Positions 2,796 to 14,724 of a stretch of DNA of 33,624 nucleotides are shown here, piece after piece. Position 1 is the stretch's first letter; each line of letters starts with the position of its first letter. The stretch lies in assembly GCA_964490075.1 (NCBI GenBank), contig CAZBBK010000065.1, positions 1 to 33,624 on the forward strand, given 5' to 3'. The stretch is from an uncultured Gemmatimonadota bacterium. GTDB taxonomy: Bacteria; GCA-2686955. The position numbers were made by a program, and so were the translations under genes. Under the pieces are notes generated by a model. The model saw only the letters and a list, made by a program, of their open reading frames with translations, was not told the origin of the DNA and did no database searches.

Positions 2796-4380
2796 TCTGC
2801 CGGCCTTTCCCCTCCAGCTCTTGCTGCGGGAGCACCCCGAGTGGCGCGACCACCCGGCGGCGGTGGTGGAGCACGACCGGCCCCAAGGTACGATCCTGTG
2901 GGTCAACTCGGCCGCCACCCGGCTGGGGATCCGCCCCGGACTGCGTTATGCGGGGGGATTGTCGCTGGCCGCCGAGCTGCGCGCCGGAACGGTTTCGGAG
3001 CAACAGATTCGCCAAGGAGTGGACCAGGTCGCCGGGCAGCTTCGTCGCTTCTCCCCCGAGGTGGAGCCCTGCGCCGAGCTGCCGGGGGTGTTTTGGCTCG
3101 ACGCCGGCGGGCTCGGCCGCCTGCACCCCGATCTGCGGGTGTGGGGCGACCGGCTGCGGGCCCGGCTGCGGGCCGAAGATCTCTATGCGCTGGTGGTGGT
3201 GGGCTGGACCCGCTTCGGCACCTTCGCGGTGGCGCGCGGGCTGCGCCACGGCAGCGCCGACCGGGGCATCGGCAGTCGCGCCGCGGGGGGCAAGGCGCGG
3301 CCACGGCGCGGGCGCCCCGCGCCGCCTTCGGGCACCGTCGATCTGCCCGACCGCGGGCGCGAGGCGGCGCTGGCGCGGCGGGTTCCGCTGCAACGTCTGG
3401 CGATCTCGCCCAAGAGCCGCGACCTGCTCGAAAAGCTCGACGCGCATAACGTCGGCGACCTGCTGAAGCTGCCCGCCGGGGGCTTGCGAGAGCGTTTTGG
3501 TCCCGAGCTGCACCAACTCCACTGTCTGGCGCGCGGTGACGATCCGCTCCCTTTGCAGGGCCGCCCCCCCGATCCGCCGCTGGAGGCGCGCTGCGATCTG
3601 GAGCCGCCGGTCGCCAACATCACCGAGCTGGTGTTTCATTTCTCGCGCCTCTTGCATCCCTTGCTGGAGCGGCTGGCCGAGCGTGGCAATGCCCTGGCCG
3701 AGCTGCGGCTCGCGCTCACGCTGGAAGAGTCCCCGAGCTCGAGAGGCGACGCGCGGCGTCTGCGCGAATCGCTGCGCCCCGCCGTCCCCACCCTCGACGC
3801 GCCGCAGCTTCTGCACCTGATGCATCTGCGTCTGGAACGGATCGAGCTGGCGGCGGTGGTCGAGACGATCGCGCTGGCCGCCGAGGCAGTGGCGGCGACC
3901 GAGGAGCAGCTCCTGCTCTTCGTCGAGGCTCCGCGGCGCGACCTGGAAGCCGCCGATCGCGCGCTGGCCCGGATCCGCGCCGAGCTCGGCAACGACGCGG
4001 TGGTGCGGGCCGCGCCGCACGACGCCCATCTGCCCGAAGCATCGTTCCGCTGGGAGCCGGTCGATCGTGTGTCGCTTCCGATCCTCGCCGACGCCGACGC
4101 CCAGGGCGATGCCGCGCCGCGCACTCTGATCCGGCGCATCGAGCGGCACGCCCTGCTGCTCCCCCCCCGCCCGCGCATCGAGCCCGACGGCTGGCTGCTC
4201 GCCGAGCTGGAGGCCGGTCCGGTGGTCAAGAAGAGCGGCCCCTACCTGCTCTCGGGCGCCTGGTGGCACAACCTGATCCACCGTGAGTATCACTTCGCGG
4301 AGCTGCGCCGCGGCGACATCGTCTGGGTCTACTGCGATAGGCGTCGCAAACGTTGGTTCCTGCAAGGGGCAGTAGAGTAG
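2773..4380 (+). CDS. imuB: ImuB, Y-family DNA polymerase-like protein
   Basis: [12 protein letters not shown]-terminus, FSPEVE, FWLDAGG, C-terminal GPY..SGAWW...REY...WFLQG. Lies between imuA and dnaE2. Confidence 0.9.
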
Positions 4381-4385
4381 TTGCC

Positions 4386-7541
<3,156 letters not shown>

Positions 7542-7584: not shown

Positions 7585-8379
7585 GTGCTCTCCTGCATCC
7601 CTGCACCTCGGCTACGTAGCGCGCTGGCCGTCGCTCTCTGCCTGCTGGCGGAGCCCGGCGCCGTGGCCGATACCGTGCACGTGGCGGTGGCGGCCAATTT
7701 CCGCGCCACCGAGACACGCCTGGCCCAACGCTTCCGGGCAACGACCGGGCATCGGGTGGTCGCCAGCACCGGCTCGACCGGACAGCTCTACGCGCAGATC
7801 GTCCACGGGGCCCCTTTCGAGGTCTTCCTGGCGGCGGATACGTTGCGCCCGGCGCGCTTGGTGGAATCAGGGCACGCGCTGCGGGGCAGCACCTTCACCT
7901 ACGCCCTGGGCTCGCTGGTGCTCTGCTCGACCACGGAGATCGACTCGGGCGATGGCGCGGAGATGCTGCGAAGCGGGCGCTTTCGGCGCCTGGCGATCGC
8001 CCATCCCGAGACCGCCCCTTACGGCCGCGCGGCGCTGGAGACTTTGCGCCGACTCGGCCTCGAGGACGCGATGGCCGGGCGCCTGGTGCGCGGCGAAAAC
8101 GTGACGCAGGCCATGCACTTCGTGACCAGCGGAGCGGCCGACCTGGGCCTCGTGGCGCGGGCGCTGGTCTCCCGCGTGCCGGCGACGCGCATCTGGCAGG
8201 TGCCGGGCGACTTGCACGGGCCGATCCGCCAAGATGCGGTGCTGCTCTCCACGGCGGCGGTCAGGCCAGCGGCGCGCGACTACCTCGACTTCCTGGTCTC
8301 CGCCGAAGGACGCGCTCTGATCGCGTCCGCCGGCTACGACCTGCCGCCTCCCGCGACCCGGCCCGAGAGGCGCCCGTGA
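7585..8379 (+). CDS. modA: Molybdate ABC transporter substrate-binding protein
   Basis: Signal peptide, VAVAANF, GSTGQLYAQIVHGAPFEVFLAAD, APYGRAA, GENVTQA. Start codon uncertain. Confidence 0.93.
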   Translation: MLSCIPAPRLRSALAVALCLLAEPGAVADTVHVAVAANFRATETRLAQRFRATTGHRVVASTGSTGQLYAQIVHGAPFEVFLAADTLRPARLVESGHALRGSTFTYALGSLVLCSTTEIDSGDGAEMLRSGRFRRLAIAHPETAPYGRAALETLRRLGLEDAMAGRLVRGENVTQAMHFVTSGAADLGLVARALVSRVPATRIWQVPGDLHGPIRQDAVLLSTAAVRPAARDYLDFLVSAEGRALIASAGYDLPPPATRPERRP

Positions 8380-9044
8380 CGATCGACTGGGCACCGATCA
8401 CCCTCACGCTGCGCCTCGCGGCCACCACCACAGTCATTCTCCTCATGTTGTGCACGCCCCTGGCGTGGTGGCTGGCCCACACCCACGCCCGACTGCGCAC
8501 CGCGGTGGAAGCGATGGTCGCCCTGCCTCTGGTGCTGCCCCCCACCGTGCTCGGCTTCTACCTGCTGGTCGTCCTGGGGCCACACGGCCCGATCGGTGGT
8601 CCCTGGGAAGCGATCGGCGGCGACCGGCTGGTGTTCTCCTTCCCGGGCCTGGTGATCGGCAGCGTACTCTACTCCTTGCCCTTCGTGGTACAGCCGCTGC
8701 AGAACGCCTTCGCGGCGATCGGGGCGGGACCCCTGGAGGCGGCCGCCACCCTGGGCGCGGCGCCGGTCGACCGCTTCTGCAGCGTGGTGCTGCCACTGGC
8801 CCGCTCCGGTTTTCTGACCGCCGCCACGCTCGGCTTCGCCCATACCGTAGGCGAGTTCGGCGTGGTGTTGATGATCGGCGGCAGCATCCCCGGCCGCACC
8901 CAGGTGCTTTCGATCGCCATCTACGATCACGTGGAGGCGATGCAGTACGGCCAGGCTCACCTGCTCTCGGCCGGCATGCTGCTCTTCTCGTTCGCGGTGC
9001 TGCTGGCGGTCTACTCGCTGAGCCGCAGGCTGGACGGGCGATGA
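8376..9044 (+). CDS. modB: Molybdate ABC transporter permease
   Basis: LPLVLPPTVLGFYLL, EAAATLGA loop, FAHTVGEFGVVLMIGG. GTGA overlap with modA. Confidence 0.95.
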   Translation: MTIDWAPITLTLRLAATTTVILLMLCTPLAWWLAHTHARLRTAVEAMVALPLVLPPTVLGFYLLVVLGPHGPIGGPWEAIGGDRLVFSFPGLVIGSVLYSLPFVVQPLQNAFAAIGAGPLEAAATLGAAPVDRFCSVVLPLARSGFLTAATLGFAHTVGEFGVVLMIGGSIPGRTQVLSIAIYDHVEAMQYGQAHLLSAGMLLFSFAVLLAVYSLSRRLDGR

Positions 9045-10114
9045 ACGCGCGCTTCCACCTCGCGCTCGACGCCTTCGAGCTGGACGCCGCTTTCCGCGCA
9101 CCGGAGCGCGGGATCACCTGCCTGCTGGGACGATCCGGCTCGGGGAAGACCACCCTGCTGCGCTGCGTCGCCGGGCTGGAATCCCATGCCCGCGGCCACT
9201 TCCATCTCGGCGACCGTTGTTGGCTGGACAGCGAACGCGGCCGCTTCGTGCCCCCCCACCGGCGCCCGGTCGGTTTCGTGTTCCAGAACGCCAACCTCTT
9301 TCCCCATCTCAGCGTGCGCGGCAACCTGCGCTATGCCGAGCGGCGCGTGCCGCGCTCGCGGGAGCGCTTTCCCGTCGATCGGGCGATCGCGTGGCTGGGC
9401 CTGGAGACGCTGCTCGAGCGCCGTCCCGCGCGGCTCTCGGGCGGCGAACAGCAGCGCGTGGCGATCGCGCGGGCCCTTCTGCGGAGCCCCCGGCTGCTGC
9501 TCCTGGACGAACCCCTGGCCTCGCTCGACCACGCCGCGCGGCGGATCATCCTGCCCTACCTGGAACGGCTCCACGCCGATCTCGACATCCCGATCCTCTA
9601 CGTCACCCACAGCATGGGCGAGGTCGCCCGCCTCGCCGACCACGTGATCTGGATCGACGCCGGCCGGGTCGCCGCCGCGGGATCGCCGCGCGACATCCTC
9701 GGCCGCTTCGACCTGGCCGAGGCCACCCACGACGATCCGCTCAGCGTGGTCGACGCAAAAGTGCGCACCCACGACACGGGCGACCACATCTCGGAGCTGG
9801 ACAGCGCGCTCGGGCCGATCTACGTCAACGGCCTGGACCATCTCCTCGGCAGCTCGGTGCGGGTGCAGATCCACGCCCGCGACGTGAGCATCGCGCTCGA
9901 GGCGGAGGTCCACCACAGCATCCTGAACGCCTTCGAGATGGAGATCGTGCGGCTCGAGCCAGCCGGGCCGGGCCAGACTCTGGTCTACCTGGCGCTCGAG
10001 CGCAACGCGCCGCCGACGCTGGTCGCCAGGATCACGCGCAGATCGGCGGTCAGACTCGATCTGGAGCCCGGGAAGCGGGTGTGGGCACGGGTGAAGGCGC
10101 TGCGGGTCGATTGA
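9041..10114 (+). CDS. modC: Molybdate ABC transporter ATP-binding protein with TOBE/Mop tail
   Basis: GRSGSGKTT, LSGGEQQRVAIARAL, LLLLDEP, C-terminal SILN...ARITRRS...VWARVKA. ATGA overlap with modB. Confidence 0.95.
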   Translation: MNARFHLALDAFELDAAFRAPERGITCLLGRSGSGKTTLLRCVAGLESHARGHFHLGDRCWLDSERGRFVPPHRRPVGFVFQNANLFPHLSVRGNLRYAERRVPRSRERFPVDRAIAWLGLETLLERRPARLSGGEQQRVAIARALLRSPRLLLLDEPLASLDHAARRIILPYLERLHADLDIPILYVTHSMGEVARLADHVIWIDAGRVAAAGSPRDILGRFDLAEATHDDPLSVVDAKVRTHDTGDHISELDSALGPIYVNGLDHLLGSSVRVQIHARDVSIALEAEVHHSILNAFEMEIVRLEPAGPGQTLVYLALERNAPPTLVARITRRSAVRLDLEPGKRVWARVKALRVD

Positions 10115-10193
10115 CTGCGCCGCGACACACGATTTGACAGAGCAGACACAAATCCGCAACAAGAGTGGTGCATCATGTTCTGCACATACCAGA

Positions 10194-10412
10194 GGCGACC
10201 GATAGCCGAATGCGCTTTCCCCCCAAGCGCAGGACAGTTCTTCCCCCCGAACCGACACGGCTGGTCGCCCGCCGGAGCTCACCGCTTCCCCCCCAGCGGA
10301 GTTCCGAATCGCGCGCCGGTCGCTCCCCCCCAAGTGACCGGCGCGCCTGCGTTGGGTCGTCCAACCCACGCTCGCTCGGCTGTGCGATGATCGGTCTCTC
10401 TCACACCCGATC
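10194..10412 (+). ncRNA. Candidate structured RNA with four C-rich-loop hairpins
   Basis: Hairpins at 10211-10231, 10237-10252, 10273-10306 and 10311-10346 have loops UCCCCCC, UUCCCCCC, UCCCCCCC and CCCCCCCA. An enclosing stem (10194-10208 with 10258-10269) and two more hairpins follow. G-U pairs favour the + strand. Confidence 0.65.
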
Positions 10413-10436
10413 CCCCTTCCCCCGACGCCCAGCGCA

Positions 10437-11168
10437 GTGGACCCGCCGATCCAACCGTCCGCTCCCACCCCCGCCCCCGAGCCCGAGCCCGAGGGCTGGG
10501 TATTCGACGAGGTGAGCCGGATCGAGAACGGGCGCGCGCTGCTCCACGACATCTCGCTGCGCATCGCCTGGAACGAGCGGGTGGTGCTGACCGGGCCCTC
10601 GGGCAGCGGCAAGACCACCTTGCTGCGCCTGCTGCCGCGCCTCGACGACCCCGACGGCGGCGAGCTGCGCCTCCAGGGCCGGCCGCTGAGCGCCCACGAG
10701 CCGCGCGGCCTGCGGCGCCAGGTGCGCTACATCCCGCAGCATCCGGTGGCGCTGCCGGGCAGCGTCGCCGACAACCTCGAGTGCGCGGCCAGGCTCGTGC
10801 GCAGCACCAGCTCCAGGACGCGGATGGAGTCGCTGCTGGCCAGCTTGAGGCTCGACCCCGATCTGCTCGACGCCAACGTGGAGCGCCTCTCGGGCGGAGA
10901 GCTGCATCGGCTGGCGGTGGCGCGGGCGCTGATGGCGGCGGGCGCTTCCCCCGGAGGCGCCTTCTTCGTGCTCGACGAGCCGGCCGCGCATCTCGATCCG
11001 GAGAGCGCGCGCGCGATGCTGGCCACGGTCGCCGACGCCGGCGGCCTGCTGGTCGCCGACCACCACGGCCTGGCCCACGACCTGGTCGGCCGGGCGGTGC
11101 GGATCGAGAAGGGACGGATCGTCGCCGACCGGCCGCTCGGCGAAGGAGAGCGATGCAGCAGGGCCTGA
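10437..11168 (+). CDS. ABC transporter ATP-binding protein (FetA/YbbL-like)
   Basis: GPSGSGKTT, LSGGELHR, VLDEPAAHLD. Paired with a UPF0014 permease. Start uncertain. Confidence 0.85.
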   Translation: MDPPIQPSAPTPAPEPEPEGWVFDEVSRIENGRALLHDISLRIAWNERVVLTGPSGSGKTTLLRLLPRLDDPDGGELRLQGRPLSAHEPRGLRRQVRYIPQHPVALPGSVADNLECAARLVRSTSSRTRMESLLASLRLDPDLLDANVERLSGGELHRLAVARALMAAGASPGGAFFVLDEPAAHLDPESARAMLATVADAGGLLVADHHGLAHDLVGRAVRIEKGRIVADRPLGEGERCSRA

Positions 11169-11944
11169 TCGTTCCGACCCCGGTCGACCTTGCGCTGGCG
11201 GCCGCGCTGGTGTTGGGCAGCGCCGCGCTGCTCTGGCTGCGGCGCGTGGCTCTGGCCCGCGGTCTGCTGATTTCCGCGGCGCGCTGCGGCGTGCAGCTCC
11301 TGGCGGTCGGCTATCTGCTGAACGCGGTGTTCGGCCTCGACTCGGCCTGGGCGGTGCTGGCGCTGCTGGGGGCGATGATGGCGGTGGCGGCGCAGACGGT
11401 GACTTCGCGGATGCCCGACACCGGCCTGGGACTGCTCTGGCAGGTCGGTGCGGCGTTGGCCTGCGGGACCGTTCTCACGCTCTTCTTCGCCACCACCGTG
11501 GTGCTGGCGGTGGAGCCCTGGTTTGCGCCGCGCTACCTGATCCCGCTCTTCGGGATGCTGCTCGGCAACAGCCTCAACGGGGCCACCCTGGCCGCCGAGC
11601 GGATCGACGCCGAGGTGCGGCGCCGCGCGCCCCAGATCGAGACCCTGCTCTGTCTGGGGGCTTCGTCCCGCGAGGCCGGCGCCGAGACCGCGCGCGCCGC
11701 CCTGACCGCCGCCCTGCTGCCAACCGTCAACGCCATGGCGGTGGCCGGTGTGGTGGCGTTGCCGGGCATGATGACCGGGCAGATCCTGTCGGGGACCGAA
11801 CCGACCGTCGCGGTGCGCTATCAGCTCTTGATCTGGCTGCTGATCGCAACCTCGGTGACGGTGTCGGCGGTGCTGCTGGTGTCGCTGCGGCTGCGACACC
11901 ACTTCACGGCTGCTCATCAGCTTCGCCGGCCTCGGCGATCGTGA
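11153..11944 (+). CDS. UPF0014/FetB-like ABC permease
   Basis: R..VQLLAVGYLL, RYLIPLFGMLLGNS, LPGMMTGQILSG..P..AVRYQ. ATG at 11153 follows GGAG. Confidence 0.88.
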   Translation: MQQGLIVPTPVDLALAAALVLGSAALLWLRRVALARGLLISAARCGVQLLAVGYLLNAVFGLDSAWAVLALLGAMMAVAAQTVTSRMPDTGLGLLWQVGAALACGTVLTLFFATTVVLAVEPWFAPRYLIPLFGMLLGNSLNGATLAAERIDAEVRRRAPQIETLLCLGASSREAGAETARAALTAALLPTVNAMAVAGVVALPGMMTGQILSGTEPTVAVRYQLLIWLLIATSVTVSAVLLVSLRLRHHFTAAHQLRRPRRS

Positions 11945-12533
11945 TCCTGCCGGCGCAGCGCTCGCGGAGCTGGAGCACCAGGTGCTCGAGCGCGTCGATC
12001 GGAGTCTCCACGACCAGGCGCACGCCGGCGCCGTAGCGCGCCTCGGTCGGCTCCAGGGCGTGCGCCGCGAGCACCGCGTCGACGGCGCCCGATCGGGAGT
12101 AGTCGAAGCTCAGCGCGAGCGCCGTGGTGCGAGGCAGCTCGACGATCTCGGCCCGCTCCAGGGCCGCCGCCAGCGCGCCCGCGTAGGCCCGCGCCAGTCC
12201 GCCCCGGCCGAGCTTGGTGCCGCCGAAGTAGCGGGTGACGACCGCGGCCACGCGCACCAGCTCGCGGCCGCTGAGGCGATCGAGCATCGGGCGTCCCGCC
12301 GAGCCCGAGGGCTCCCCGGCATCGGAGTAGCGAAAGCCGTCGTCCCGGTCGCTGAGACGCCAGGCATAGCAGTTGTGGGTGGCGTCGGCGAAGCGCCGTC
12401 GAATCGCGGCGATGAAACGCTGCGCCGCATCCACGTCGCCGACCGGCGCCAGGTGGGCGATGAAGCGCGAGCCTCGGACCTTCTCGCCCTCGAAGCTGAG
12501 GGGCGCGGCGATGGTGCGGATCGGGGAGCTCAT
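11904..12533 (-). CDS. yigZ: YigZ/IMPACT family protein
   Basis: SRFIAHL, DATHNCYAW, SDAGEPSGSAGRPML, VVTRYFGGTKLGRGGLARAY. Confidence 0.93.
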   Translation of the reverse strand: MSSPIRTIAAPLSFEGEKVRGSRFIAHLAPVGDVDAAQRFIAAIRRRFADATHNCYAWRLSDRDDGFRYSDAGEPSGSAGRPMLDRLSGRELVRVAAVVTRYFGGTKLGRGGLARAYAGALAAALERAEIVELPRTTALALSFDYSRSGAVDAVLAAHALEPTEARYGAGVRLVVETPIDALEHLVLQLRERCAGRITIAEAGEADEQP

Positions 12534-12648
12534 GGGGATGGGAGAGGAGGGCCCCGCGAGGACGCCGGGACCCTCGGATTGGAGATCTCGTTCGCAGGCC
12601 CGATCTACTGTACCGTTACCATGCGCAATAGCGTCTGGAGATCCGATT

Positions 12649-14724
12649 TTGACCGGTCAGCTCATTTATCCGCTCGCCTGCGTCGCCTCGGCGACCCTCT
12701 TCGCGTGCACCGGCCCAACCCCGCAGACCCCTGAGGAGGAGCTCCCGAAGAGCGCGCCGAGATACCTGGAGCTGGGCGATCTGCCGGAAATACAATCCCA
12801 CGGTCTGCTGCGCGTTCTGACGATCAACCAGGTGCCCCGGGCCCAAGGCGCGGCGAGCGCCCATTTCGATGGCGCCCTGCTCGATGCATTCGCCCGGCAG
12901 AAAGACCTCGAGCTCGACTGGATACACGTGCACCGAGCCGGCGAGCTGGTCCCCCGCCTGCTCGAGGGCCGGGGCGATCTGATCGTCTCCGAGGCACCGC
13001 TCACCCTCGGCGAACGCCGCCGCATCGCGCAGACCGTGCCGGTCGCCAGCGTCCATGCCCGCGTCGCCGCACGTGTGGGCGAGTCGGTCGACACGCCCGC
13101 CAGCCTGGCCGATCGCCGCGTCGCCGCGCGCCCCTTCCACGAGGGCTGGGAGGCCTTCGAAGAGCTGCGCTCCGACCACCCCGGCATCCGCCTGGAGCGC
13201 ATCGTCGACACCGTGACCGAGCGCGAGCTGCTGCAGCGGGTGGCCGACGGACGCTACGACATCGCCCTCTCGGACGACCGTTCGATCGCCGCCGCCATCG
13301 ATGCTGGGTTGCCCTTGCTGCCGGGACTGTCGATCGGTCGCCCGCGACTGCTCCGTTGGAGCGTGCGCCCCGGCGCCGCGGCGCTGGTGGCGGCGCTCGA
13401 CCGCTTCCTGAACCAGAGCCAGGTGCTGACCGCGCCGCGCGAGCTCTTCCTGGACGACCTGGCCGGAATCCGCCGCCGCGGCACCCTGCGCGTGCTGACC
13501 CGCAACAGCCCGGCGAGCTACTACGTCTGGCGCGGGCGCCTCATGGGCTTCGAGTACGAGCTCTGCCGCAGGTTCGCCAAGAAACAGCGGTTGGCCATCG
13601 AGATGGTGGTTCCGCCGCCGGAGGCTGACCTGATCGACTGGCTGCTGGAGGGGAAGGGCGACATGGTCGCGGCCTCGCTGGCGATCACCCAGGAACGGAT
13701 CGAGCGCGGCGTCGCCTTCACCCGCCGCTACCACCAGGCGGTCGAGAAGATCATCGCCCGCCACGACGACCCGCTGCGCTCGGTCGAAGAGCTCGGCGGC
13801 CGGACGGTCGTGGTCAACCCCGCCAGCTCCTACTGGAAGAGCGTGGAGCGCGTGCAGCGATCCGGCATCGACGTGACGCTCGAACCGCCCCCCGAGCCGC
13901 TGGGCACCGACGAAATCATCTCGCGAGTGGCCGACGGGGAGTTCGACCTCAGCGTCGCCGACAGCCACATCGCCGCGCTGGAGATGGCCTGGCGCGACGA
14001 CATCGTCGCCCGCGTCGACATCGGCGCTCCGGTCGACCACGGCTGGGCGGTGCGGGCCGCCAGCTCAGAGCTGCTGGCCGCGCTCGACGGCTTCATCGGC
14101 AACGAGTATCGCGGCCTGTTCTACAACGTGGTCTACGATCGCTACTTCAAGGCCAGCGAGGGAGGCGCGGCCTTGCCCGCCGAGGCACGCGCCGAGGAGC
14201 AGCTCTCGCCCTGGGACGACCTGGTTCGCAGCTACGCCTCGAGCTACGGCTTCGACTGGCGTCTGGTGGTCGCCCAGATGTGCCAGGAGAGCCGCTTCGA
14301 TCCCCAGGCCCGCTCCACCAACGGCGCCCTGGGCCTGATGCAGATGCTGCCGCGCACCGCGGGGCAGCTCGGCTTCGGCGATCTGCACGATCCCGAGACC
14401 GGGATTCACGCCGGCGTGAAGTACCTCGCTTGGCTGCGCGACCGCTTCGAATCCGACCTGACGGTCCACGATCGCACCTGGTTCGCGCTGGCCGCCTACA
14501 ACGCCGGCTACGGCCACGTGGAAGACGCGCGGAGGCTGGCGCTCGAGCTCGGCCTCGATCGAGATCGCTGGTTCAGCAACGTGGAGCGGGCGATGCTGCT
14601 GCTGTCCCGTCCGGACTATGCCCAGGGGGCCCGCTACGGATACTGCCGGGGTCGCGAGCCGGTCGCCTATGTGCGCCGCATCCGCGACCGCTTCGCGGCC
14701 TACACTCGAACCGCCGAGTCCTGA
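12649..14724 (+). CDS. MltF-like lytic transglycosylase lipoprotein with two solute-binding domains
   Basis: TTG start after GGAG, lipobox LFAC, two DL..I...G.LRVLT repeats, SLT motifs QESRF, GALGLMQ, ALAAYNAGYGHV. Confidence 0.88.
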   Translation: MTGQLIYPLACVASATLFACTGPTPQTPEEELPKSAPRYLELGDLPEIQSHGLLRVLTINQVPRAQGAASAHFDGALLDAFARQKDLELDWIHVHRAGELVPRLLEGRGDLIVSEAPLTLGERRRIAQTVPVASVHARVAARVGESVDTPASLADRRVAARPFHEGWEAFEELRSDHPGIRLERIVDTVTERELLQRVADGRYDIALSDDRSIAAAIDAGLPLLPGLSIGRPRLLRWSVRPGAAALVAALDRFLNQSQVLTAPRELFLDDLAGIRRRGTLRVLTRNSPASYYVWRGRLMGFEYELCRRFAKKQRLAIEMVVPPPEADLIDWLLEGKGDMVAASLAITQERIERGVAFTRRYHQAVEKIIARHDDPLRSVEELGGRTVVVNPASSYWKSVERVQRSGIDVTLEPPPEPLGTDEIISRVADGEFDLSVADSHIAALEMAWRDDIVARVDIGAPVDHGWAVRAASSELLAALDGFIGNEYRGLFYNVVYDRYFKASEGGAALPAEARAEEQLSPWDDLVRSYASSYGFDWRLVVAQMCQESRFDPQARSTNGALGLMQMLPRTAGQLGFGDLHDPETGIHAGVKYLAWLRDRFESDLTVHDRTWFALAAYNAGYGHVEDARRLALELGLDRDRWFSNVERAMLLLSRPDYAQGARYGYCRGREPVAYVRRIRDRFAAYTRTAES

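Follow-up and report, generated by a model that had tools for sequence, protein, structure and literature searches.

Hairpins that present one C-rich word in their loops are a recurring design among bacterial small RNAs (sRNAs), described previously in the Alphaproteobacteria (cuckoo), the Actinobacteria (6C), Xanthomonas (sX13) and the Firmicutes. The cuckoo RNAs (RF02344; CcsR/RSs0680, NfeR1 and SmelC397) are built of two to four adjacent hairpins with CCUCCUCCC loops and variable stems, are present in many copies and are described as lacking multiloops (PMC4615179). The loops of 6C bind G-rich mRNA sites directly and without a chaperone (PMC6486639), and the 4C/5C loops of sX13 repress mRNAs with G-rich motifs near the start codon in an Hfq-independent manner (PMC3771888). 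C-rich loops of the staphylococcal RNAIII and Rsa RNAs pair with ribosome-binding sites, more than one loop being used per target (PMC4615179, PMC3771888). The element considered here lies at 10194-10346, + strand, of a 33,624-nucleotide (nt) stretch of DNA, the whole of which we call the window, from an uncultured bacterium (contig CAZBBK010000065.1 of assembly GCA_964490075.1). It has four C-loop hairpins on a folded scaffold and belongs to a family of eight copies across four genomes of one bacterial family. That the element is a functional structured RNA family is highly likely, and it is very probably an sRNA gene family that is new to the databases and of a known design type, in a phylum from which no comparable RNA is on record. 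As a whole, the material is best explained by an independently transcribed family of trans-acting sRNAs with multivalent C-loops, to which we give a probability of about 0.55.

If this reading is true, a barely sampled, uncultured, high-GC phylum (five species genomes) would gain its first candidate for a regulatory RNA family, and the multi-hairpin design an independent, apparently convergent case. A further instance would strengthen the idea that G-C-rich loop pairing is the general Hfq-free sRNA solution in GC-rich bacteria. The structural model of the family is clear, its three paralogues share a promoter motif, and its alignment is good enough for seeding an Rfam family.

Fold of the Window Copy

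The original prediction had seen four C-loop hairpins and a closing junction in the 322-base-pair (bp) gap between the stop of modC (ABC_tran and TOBE domains), at 10114, and the start of the next ABC ATPase open reading frame (ORF), at 10437. Both the sequence and the minimum free energy (MFE) fold bear this out, position by position. On the + strand, 10194-10346 forms a three-way junction, in which the closing helix P1 surrounds hairpins H1 and H2, followed by H3 and then by H4; all four apical loops are C6-7. The parts are listed below, the helices and hairpins as they stand in the MFE structure.

10194-10200/10263-10269, + strand: closing helix P1a
10204-10208/10258-10262, + strand: closing helix P1b, stacked with P1a
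10211-10231, + strand: hairpin H1, loop UCCCCCC
10237-10252, + strand: hairpin H2, loop UUCCCCCC
10273-10306, + strand: hairpin H3, stem of 7+5 bp with a CA bulge, loop UCCCCCCC
10311-10346, + strand: hairpin H4, GC-rich stem of 14 bp, loop CCCCCCCA
10347-10436, + strand: non-conserved stretch, with a hairpin at 10349-10371 and then the fetA-proximal region from ~10378

Folding against shuffled controls, which the original prediction had proposed as a check, upholds the structure. The MFE of each strand of 10190-10415 was compared with that of 200 shuffles: the + strand folds at -101.7 kcal/mol (z = -5.36) and 0/200 shuffles are as stable, while the - strand has z = -2.07 and is equalled by 5/200 shuffles. 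The 153-nt core of the window copy has z = -7.9. Two further hairpins had been proposed, at 10349-10371 and 10389-10412; both fold and neither is conserved. Matches to the covariance models described below stop at H4 in every copy. By eye, the window from ~10378 on resembles the fetA-proximal DNA of a related genome (G003, locus L064), and this part is therefore assigned to fetA and placed outside the RNA.

Three C6 runs within ~100 nt are found at 16 places, counting both strands, in the 5.7-Mb genome to which the window belongs (G000). Twelve of these places, mostly at contig ends, are low-complexity poly-C; three are the family loci, and one, on contig C118, is of another kind. Four DNA sequencing runs yield an identical sequence of the element with zero variants, and one of them may be the source of the assembly; low-depth contigs from these runs stop at the C-runs of the window RNA.

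Paralogues and Orthologues

The phylum is represented in the reference set by five species genomes, of which G000 to G003 form one family and G004 is the sole genome of a sister family. G000 holds three diverged paralogues with the same architecture, termed A1 (the window copy), A2 and B. In all, A1 was found in G000, G003 and G001, A2 in G000 and G002, and B in G000, G003 and G002. The assemblies of G001-G003 are only 83-84% complete, and their missing paralogues may therefore be unassembled. The list below gives copies outside the window, R1 being a covariance model derived from the window copy only.

G000, C79:19571-19711, + strand: A2, same architecture
G000, C33:4570-4740, - strand: B, same architecture, with a closing helix and four runs of C6; its long terminal hairpin precedes UUCUCUUU
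G003, C223:2006-2154: A1, full length, 51.7 bits, E 2e-6 with R1
G001, C213:5881-6026: A1, full length, 45.3 bits, E 3e-5 with R1

In the A2 copy of G000 the helix GCUGGAC/GUCCAGC encloses two C-loop hairpins; another C-loop hairpin comes next, and then an H4 of 12 bp whose loop is CCGCCCC. The A2 orthologue in G002 and the B orthologues in G003 and G002 came from pattern and BLAST searches. A second covariance model (R2), built from the three A1 copies only, was searched against 18.7 kb of preselected loci and recovered every A2 and B copy, with E-values from 5e-6 to 4e-4. The covariance model links the paralogues, which BLAST within their own genome does not: a BLAST search of the region against G000 returns only the match to itself, and one against 60 other genomes returns short chance matches, the best non-self match having E 0.002. 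BLAST misses the family because its paralogues and orthologues are too diverged. Neither R1 nor R2 finds a member in G004, and R1 finds none at E <= 0.01 in 146 genomes outside the phylum.

The fold and the loops are kept throughout. The sense strand has z between -3.7 and -10.9 in all eight copies, and the apical loops are C6-8 or, in G001, of the CUCCUCC type, the four loops of the G001 A1 copy being CUCCC, CUCCUCC, CCCCC and CCCCCC. The A1 orthologues are 153, 149 and 146 nt long, differences that are not multiples of three.

Covariation of the Stems

Pairs were counted in alignments fitted to the covariance model and were compared with 500 shuffles and with slid controls. In the A1 trio, 92.9% of cells are paired and 17/49 pairs are altered on both sides, against 6.7 +/- 1.9 in the shuffles (0/500 reach 17) and 0-2 in the slid controls. 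When all eight copies are taken together, 92.0% of cells are paired and 37/49 pairs are altered on both sides, against 17.8 +/- 2.6 in the shuffles (0/500 reach 37) and 4-11 in the slid controls. Every helix contributes to the covariation, the long-range P1 included: over the eight copies, 17/23 pairs are altered on both sides in helices 1-4, which make up the junction part, 10/12 in helix 5 (H3; 90% of cells paired) and 10/14 in helix 6 (H4; 98% of cells paired). The stems of H1-H3 have been largely rewritten between orthologues and the loops remain C-rich. What had been noticed among the hairpins of a single copy, that stems vary while loops are kept, holds across orthologues as well.

A Shared Upstream Region

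The DNA that precedes the RNA is also shared. In the window it contains four boxes at a spacing of 10-11 bp and a -10-like hexamer, the latter recognized from the alignment of the eight copies.

10124-10128, + strand: box GACAC
10134-10138, + strand: box TTGAC
10145-10149, + strand: box GACAC
10156-10160, + strand: box GCAAC
10171-10176, + strand: -10-like hexamer CATCAT

When the copies are aligned on the hexamer, boxes of the G(A/T)CAC type stand at identical columns in 8/8. The hexamer itself has the form CAYNNT in 8/8 copies, with invariant A2 and T6, and lies 18-26 nt ahead of P1; CATCAT (window), CACTAT, CATAAT, CATTCT, CATACT and CATTGT occur once each and CATCTT occurs twice. A position weight matrix (PWM) made from the five foreign copies ranks the three G000 loci 1st, 2nd (the window) and 6th of ~11.4 million positions. 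With the foreign A2 and B copies only, the window site ranks 11th.

Where phased direct repeats stand in for a -35 element, the activator is typically of the OmpR/PhoB type. The four boxes are accordingly a candidate activator site that would replace the -35 element and might be bound by a response regulator, and transcription of the window copy is predicted to start at ~10183-10188.

Comparison with Known RNA Families

No Rfam family, riboswitches included, reaches its gathering score in the window, which fits the description of the element as a new RNA. Among the sub-threshold matches, the biologically plausible ones are all to C-loop sRNAs and lie on the + strand; the same list holds chance matches to models of microRNAs, long non-coding RNAs and small nucleolar RNAs. 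The scores of the C-loop sRNAs were as follows.

6C (RF01066), window: 24.3 bits against a gathering score of 47, E 0.47; covers H4 and the non-conserved hairpin
sX13 (RF02232), window: 19.9 bits against 50; covers H4 only
Scr3202, window: 19.4 bits against 52
ar14 (RF02344), window copy: 16.2 bits against 58.8
ar14, G001 copy: 33.8 bits against 58.8 over the full-length model, the best Rfam match of the family

The resemblance to the cuckoo RNAs extends to several traits. Adjacent hairpins share one C/U-rich loop word that resembles an anti-Shine-Dalgarno sequence (PMC4615179), the stems are free to vary, several copies with differing neighbourhoods are present per genome, and the last hairpin is terminator-like. 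The cuckoo RNAs belong to the Alphaproteobacteria, however, and the present family to another phylum. Their loops are CCUCCUCCC, whereas those of the present family are mostly pure C6-8, with the CUCCUCC type in G001 only. Moreover, where the cuckoo RNAs are stated to form no multiloop (PMC4615179), the present family has a P1 three-way junction that appears in 8/8 MFE folds and whose P1 covaries.

6C shares with the present family its high-GC hosts without Hfq and hairpin loops with runs of at least six C. In the actinobacterial RNA the C-run lies in the first of two hairpins according to Rfam, and loops L1-L3 are predicted in PMC6486639; the present family has four C-rich loops on a junction, and there is no sequence homology between the two. 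The accessible text of PMC6486639 does not describe 6C as multi-copy, whereas the present family has three paralogues. In the sX13 RNA of the Xanthomonadaceae, three stable stems bear apical 4C/5C loops (PMC3771888); this RNA differs in its length of 115 nt, its three loops, its unstructured 5' region and its lack of a junction. RNAIII and the Rsa RNAs, which were compared here by the Rfam scan only, carry short UCCC motifs in low-GC Firmicutes and are unrelated in sequence and architecture.

The present family is thus in none of ar14, 6C and sX13, because the thresholds are failed, the loops are unlike those of cuckoo, and a junction is present. We take it to be a variant of the cuckoo, 6C and sX13 design that arose by convergence. 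Full-text searches for sRNAs with C-rich loops, which were not specific to the phylum, returned only these known families.

CsrB and RsmZ are similar in having many near-identical hairpin loops per RNA and, possibly, several paralogous RNAs per genome. Their loops, however, contain GGA and bind CsrA, and the + strand loops of the present family are without any G. A sponge of the Csr/Rsm type, one of the roles first suggested for the element, is unsupported because GGA is missing from these loops.

A match to the fluoride riboswitch was seen 5' of the B copy of G003 (L067:364-404; 19.6 bits against a gathering score of 34, E 0.15) and is probably due to chance.

Proposed Mechanism

We infer that the window element (A1) is one gene of a set of independently transcribed sRNAs of ~135-170 nt. 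Transcription would begin ~7 nt past the CAYNNT -10 element, driven by an activator on the four phased G(A/T)CAC boxes, and the transcript would end at or past H4. The covarying scaffold, comprising the P1 junction with H1 and H2, then H3 and the long H4, would display the four apical loops for G-C-rich kissing, or loop-to-single-strand pairing, with G-rich mRNA stretches. The targets would be ribosome-binding regions of the GGGGG or GGAGG type, and pairing at them would block translation with no need of Hfq. With four loops on each RNA and three paralogues under common control, the system would gain multivalency and dosage.

The proposal of a trans-acting sRNA with multivalent C-loops, present in the original prediction, is strengthened by paralogues in unrelated contexts, covarying orthologues and a shared promoter-like region. 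Its mechanism rests on anatomy and analogy, because no targets were identified and no RNA runs were found for the locus. By analogy, pairing of the C-loops with G-rich mRNA sites seems slightly better than an even bet. Hfq (PF17209) was found in 0/5 genomes of the phylum, in a search whose control was positive in 5/14 known genomes. G000 uses Shine-Dalgarno sites of the GGAGG type: among 286 unambiguous start contexts, in which the start codon overlaps the stop codon of the preceding gene, GGAG occurs in 122, GGGG in 49 and GGGGG in 25. The G-tract subset would be the best partner for pure C-runs, and GGAGG itself is matched by the CUCCUCC loops of G001. Of the internal hints that the loops read sequences of the ribosome-binding type, this drift of loop type within the orthologous A1 RNA is the best.

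Several results weigh against this reading. The alignments used for pair counts are fitted to the model, and the eight sequences come from just four related genomes. With unfitted MAFFT alignments, RNAalifold reports compensatory changes in 3/36 pairs for A2 and 4/45 for B; when MAFFT aligns A1 with A2, or the two A2 copies with each other, H1 and H2 come out of register, and RNAalifold undercounts pairs because of this misalignment. The PWM revealed no regulon past the three sRNA loci, its next-best sites being inside ORFs, and a scan for consensus sigma-70 promoters was negative in the window, the G001 copy and the G002 B copy. In the same three, a simple terminator scan misses H4, and neither the window copy nor the A2 copies have a U-tract 3' of H4. 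The sequencing runs that contain the window sequence are four DNA runs, from one marine-metagenome study, and zero RNA runs. No excess of G6 runs is seen around start codons as crudely called (19 genes in a 20-nt window, against a background of ~9 per 10-nt bin), and a pure C-run meets a mismatch at the A of GGAGG. As to the strand, the original prediction held G-U pairs to be functional on the + strand alone, which is true of the window copy (two G-U, zero A-C) and not of the family, in which wobble cells are balanced at 14 G-U/U-G vs 13 A-C/C-A; wobble pairs therefore do not settle the matter.

Rho prefers C-rich RNA, and its primary sites bind YC-rich RNA. The + strand RNA might therefore act as a decoy that titrates a binder of C-rich single strands, of the KH/poly(C) type or Rho itself, by a logic similar to that of CsrB and RsmZ. 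Four near-identical loops, a rigid scaffold and three co-regulated paralogues are a typical sponge layout, and an enrichment of G-rich mRNA targets was not found. No candidate binding protein was identified, though no search for one was made. The closest analogues with C-rich loops, 6C and sX13, work by base pairing, and the loops of G001 have drifted to CUCCUCC, an anti-Shine-Dalgarno word, which points to RNA pairing over a decoy. We consider a decoy unlikely.

A broader version, for which we would give still shorter credit, is a Csr-like global switch with a different code, in which the RNAs would be stoichiometric sponges under a two-component regulator acting on the G(A/T)CAC boxes. What they titrate would be either a poly(C)-binding regulator or the mRNAs with G-tract ribosome-binding sites, several leaders per RNA; this combination as a whole is distinctly unlikely. 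CsrA is encoded in 4/5 genomes of the phylum and nothing ties it to the present RNA. If such a switch existed, these bacteria, in which Hfq was not found, would have a master circuit of post-transcriptional control specific to their phylum.

Strand and 3' End

The pairing sRNA proposed above would be read from the C-strand. In the opposite case, a - strand transcript would display four G6-8 loops and could be a Shine-Dalgarno mimic, a CsrA-type sponge or a G-quadruplex switch. The hairpins form on both strands, the antisense folds also beat their shuffles (z -2.1 to -8.7), and the wobble counts of the family are non-discriminating; some antisense loops read GGGGGGA, in genomes most of which encode CsrA. 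GGA is, however, not conserved in the antisense loops, being present in 1/4 of those of the G000 A2 copy. The boxes and the -10-like region are 5' of the C-strand in 8/8 copies, U-rich tails follow H4 on the C-strand in 4/8 (the three B copies and G001), the sense z is the more negative in 7/8, and all sub-threshold Rfam matches to C-loop sRNAs are on the C-strand. For these reasons the C-strand is favoured as the transcribed strand, at odds of roughly four to one, and a functional G-loop transcript appears very unlikely.

H4 is the probable 3' terminal or terminator hairpin. In the A1 and A2 copies that have no U-tract, the word UGCGU(ACG) / GUGUACGG stands directly 3' of H4 (window 10347-10353; L075:1650-1660; L071:413-424; L044, - strand). 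In three copies it holds the palindrome CGTACG or GTAC. The word may be a 3' end or processing signal.

Neighbouring Genes

The genes next to the G000 loci are modC, fetA, a beta-helix protein gene, an FG-GAP protein gene and a ceramidase-like gene, none of which is a regulator. A1 sits 80-105 nt 3' of modC in 2/3 genomes, G000 and G003 (~105 nt in the latter). In G001 its neighbours are an alpha/beta-hydrolase gene on one side and, on the other, a UPF0029 gene in convergent orientation. A2 lies between the convergent genes for the beta-helix and FG-GAP proteins, and B is divergent from the ceramidase-like gene in 3/3 genomes. Two of the three paralogues are at syntenic positions across genera, and from the surroundings of A1, A2 and B together it follows that the RNA stays or moves independently of any downstream gene.

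The closeness of A1 to modC in two genomes raises the case of an element at the 3' end of the modABC operon, which could serve as a terminator, as a stabiliser in the 3' untranslated region (3'UTR) or, through its C-runs, in Rho loading. That C-rich stem-loops are alternative terminators in high-GC bacteria is mentioned as a hypothesis in PMC6486639. However, the G001 A1 copy does not adjoin modC, and the gene upstream of the B copies is divergent, so that B can be in no 3'UTR. A promoter-like region with invariant A2 and T6 intervenes between modC and the RNA, and four covarying hairpins with a junction are not needed for termination. An operon-end function is accordingly highly improbable.

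The element was also thought to be a leader controlling the FetAB-like exporter genes, and in the window it is indeed 90 nt 5' of the co-oriented ABC ATPase and UPF0014 genes. This cis reading, whether as a leader or as a riboswitch, is unsupported, since only 1/3 of the A1 orthologues abuts fetAB, and the position upstream of fetAB that had been proposed as a test of cis against trans action is not kept. In G003, A1 and fetA share a contig but have ~2.7 kb with minus-strand ORFs between them, and no C-loop hairpins occur directly 5' of fetA. No fetAB is present at the G001 locus. The UPF0029 gene there is a homologue (59% identity) of window 11904-12533 (- strand), just beyond fetAB, so fetAB sits between the RNA and UPF0029 in G000 and is absent from this spot in G001. 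The neighbours of A2 and B are unrelated, and no Rfam riboswitch match was found in the region. Synteny therefore largely refutes a FetAB leader, and only a very slight chance is left to it.

That the element is no RNA gene at all and is instead a DNA repeat or mobile element, i-motif or G-quadruplex DNA, a small proline-rich ORF or a product of chance is scarcely credible: ORFs of 71 and 116 amino acids do overlap the region, and poly-C tracts are common assembly debris in these metagenome-assembled genomes, but each genome has three copies, of which two are syntenic across genera, with the compensatory changes, the orthologue length differences not divisible by three and the agreement among four DNA runs described above.

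Other C-Rich Loci and Minor Observations

A pattern scan of genome contigs gave 57 matches and no new member. R1 scored three of them at E <= 1: a terminator-like hairpin of Pseudomonas, a lone hairpin (L131), and L121, which is the G002 A2 sequence over the compared stretch. The same scan of metagenome contigs gave two matches and zero members. Other spots with multiple C6 runs and without the family architecture are on C118 in G000, on C26, C134 and C226 in G002, on C664 in G003 and on C15 in G004. The C118 spot (5146-5221; L073:247-322) has three C6-8 runs beside a repeated GTCATTCCGG word and a CCGGCGAAAGCCGG hairpin; it is off the family model and possibly a different repeat element. The G004 spot (L070, - strand, oriented 1075-1146) consists of three tandem copies of a 33-nt unit, CCCCCCGGTTTGGTGTGCCCAGGGACTCCAGTT, in an architecture unrelated to the family.

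Long, low-complexity runs of poly-C or poly-G are found at or near contig ends in G000 (C19:50-128, C23:5-53, C62:37150-37193, C65:33591-33624 and others), in G003 (C171:1-63) and in G004 (C27, C121 and C159). They look like sequencing or assembly artefacts.

The word ctgtgcgatSatc..., located ~40-60 nt 5' of the fetA-like ATPase gene, is common to G000 (10378-10400) and G003 (L064:1100-1150) and may be a promoter, operator or 5' leader element of fetAB. Elsewhere in the window, a dnaE-like gene for the alpha subunit of DNA polymerase III is at 4353-7541 and is followed by modA, modB and modC at 7585-10114. The UPF0029/DUF1949 (YigZ-like) gene at 11904-12533 (- strand) is convergent with fetB, and 12373-14724 encodes an MltF-like lytic transglycosylase with SLT and SBP_bac_3 domains.

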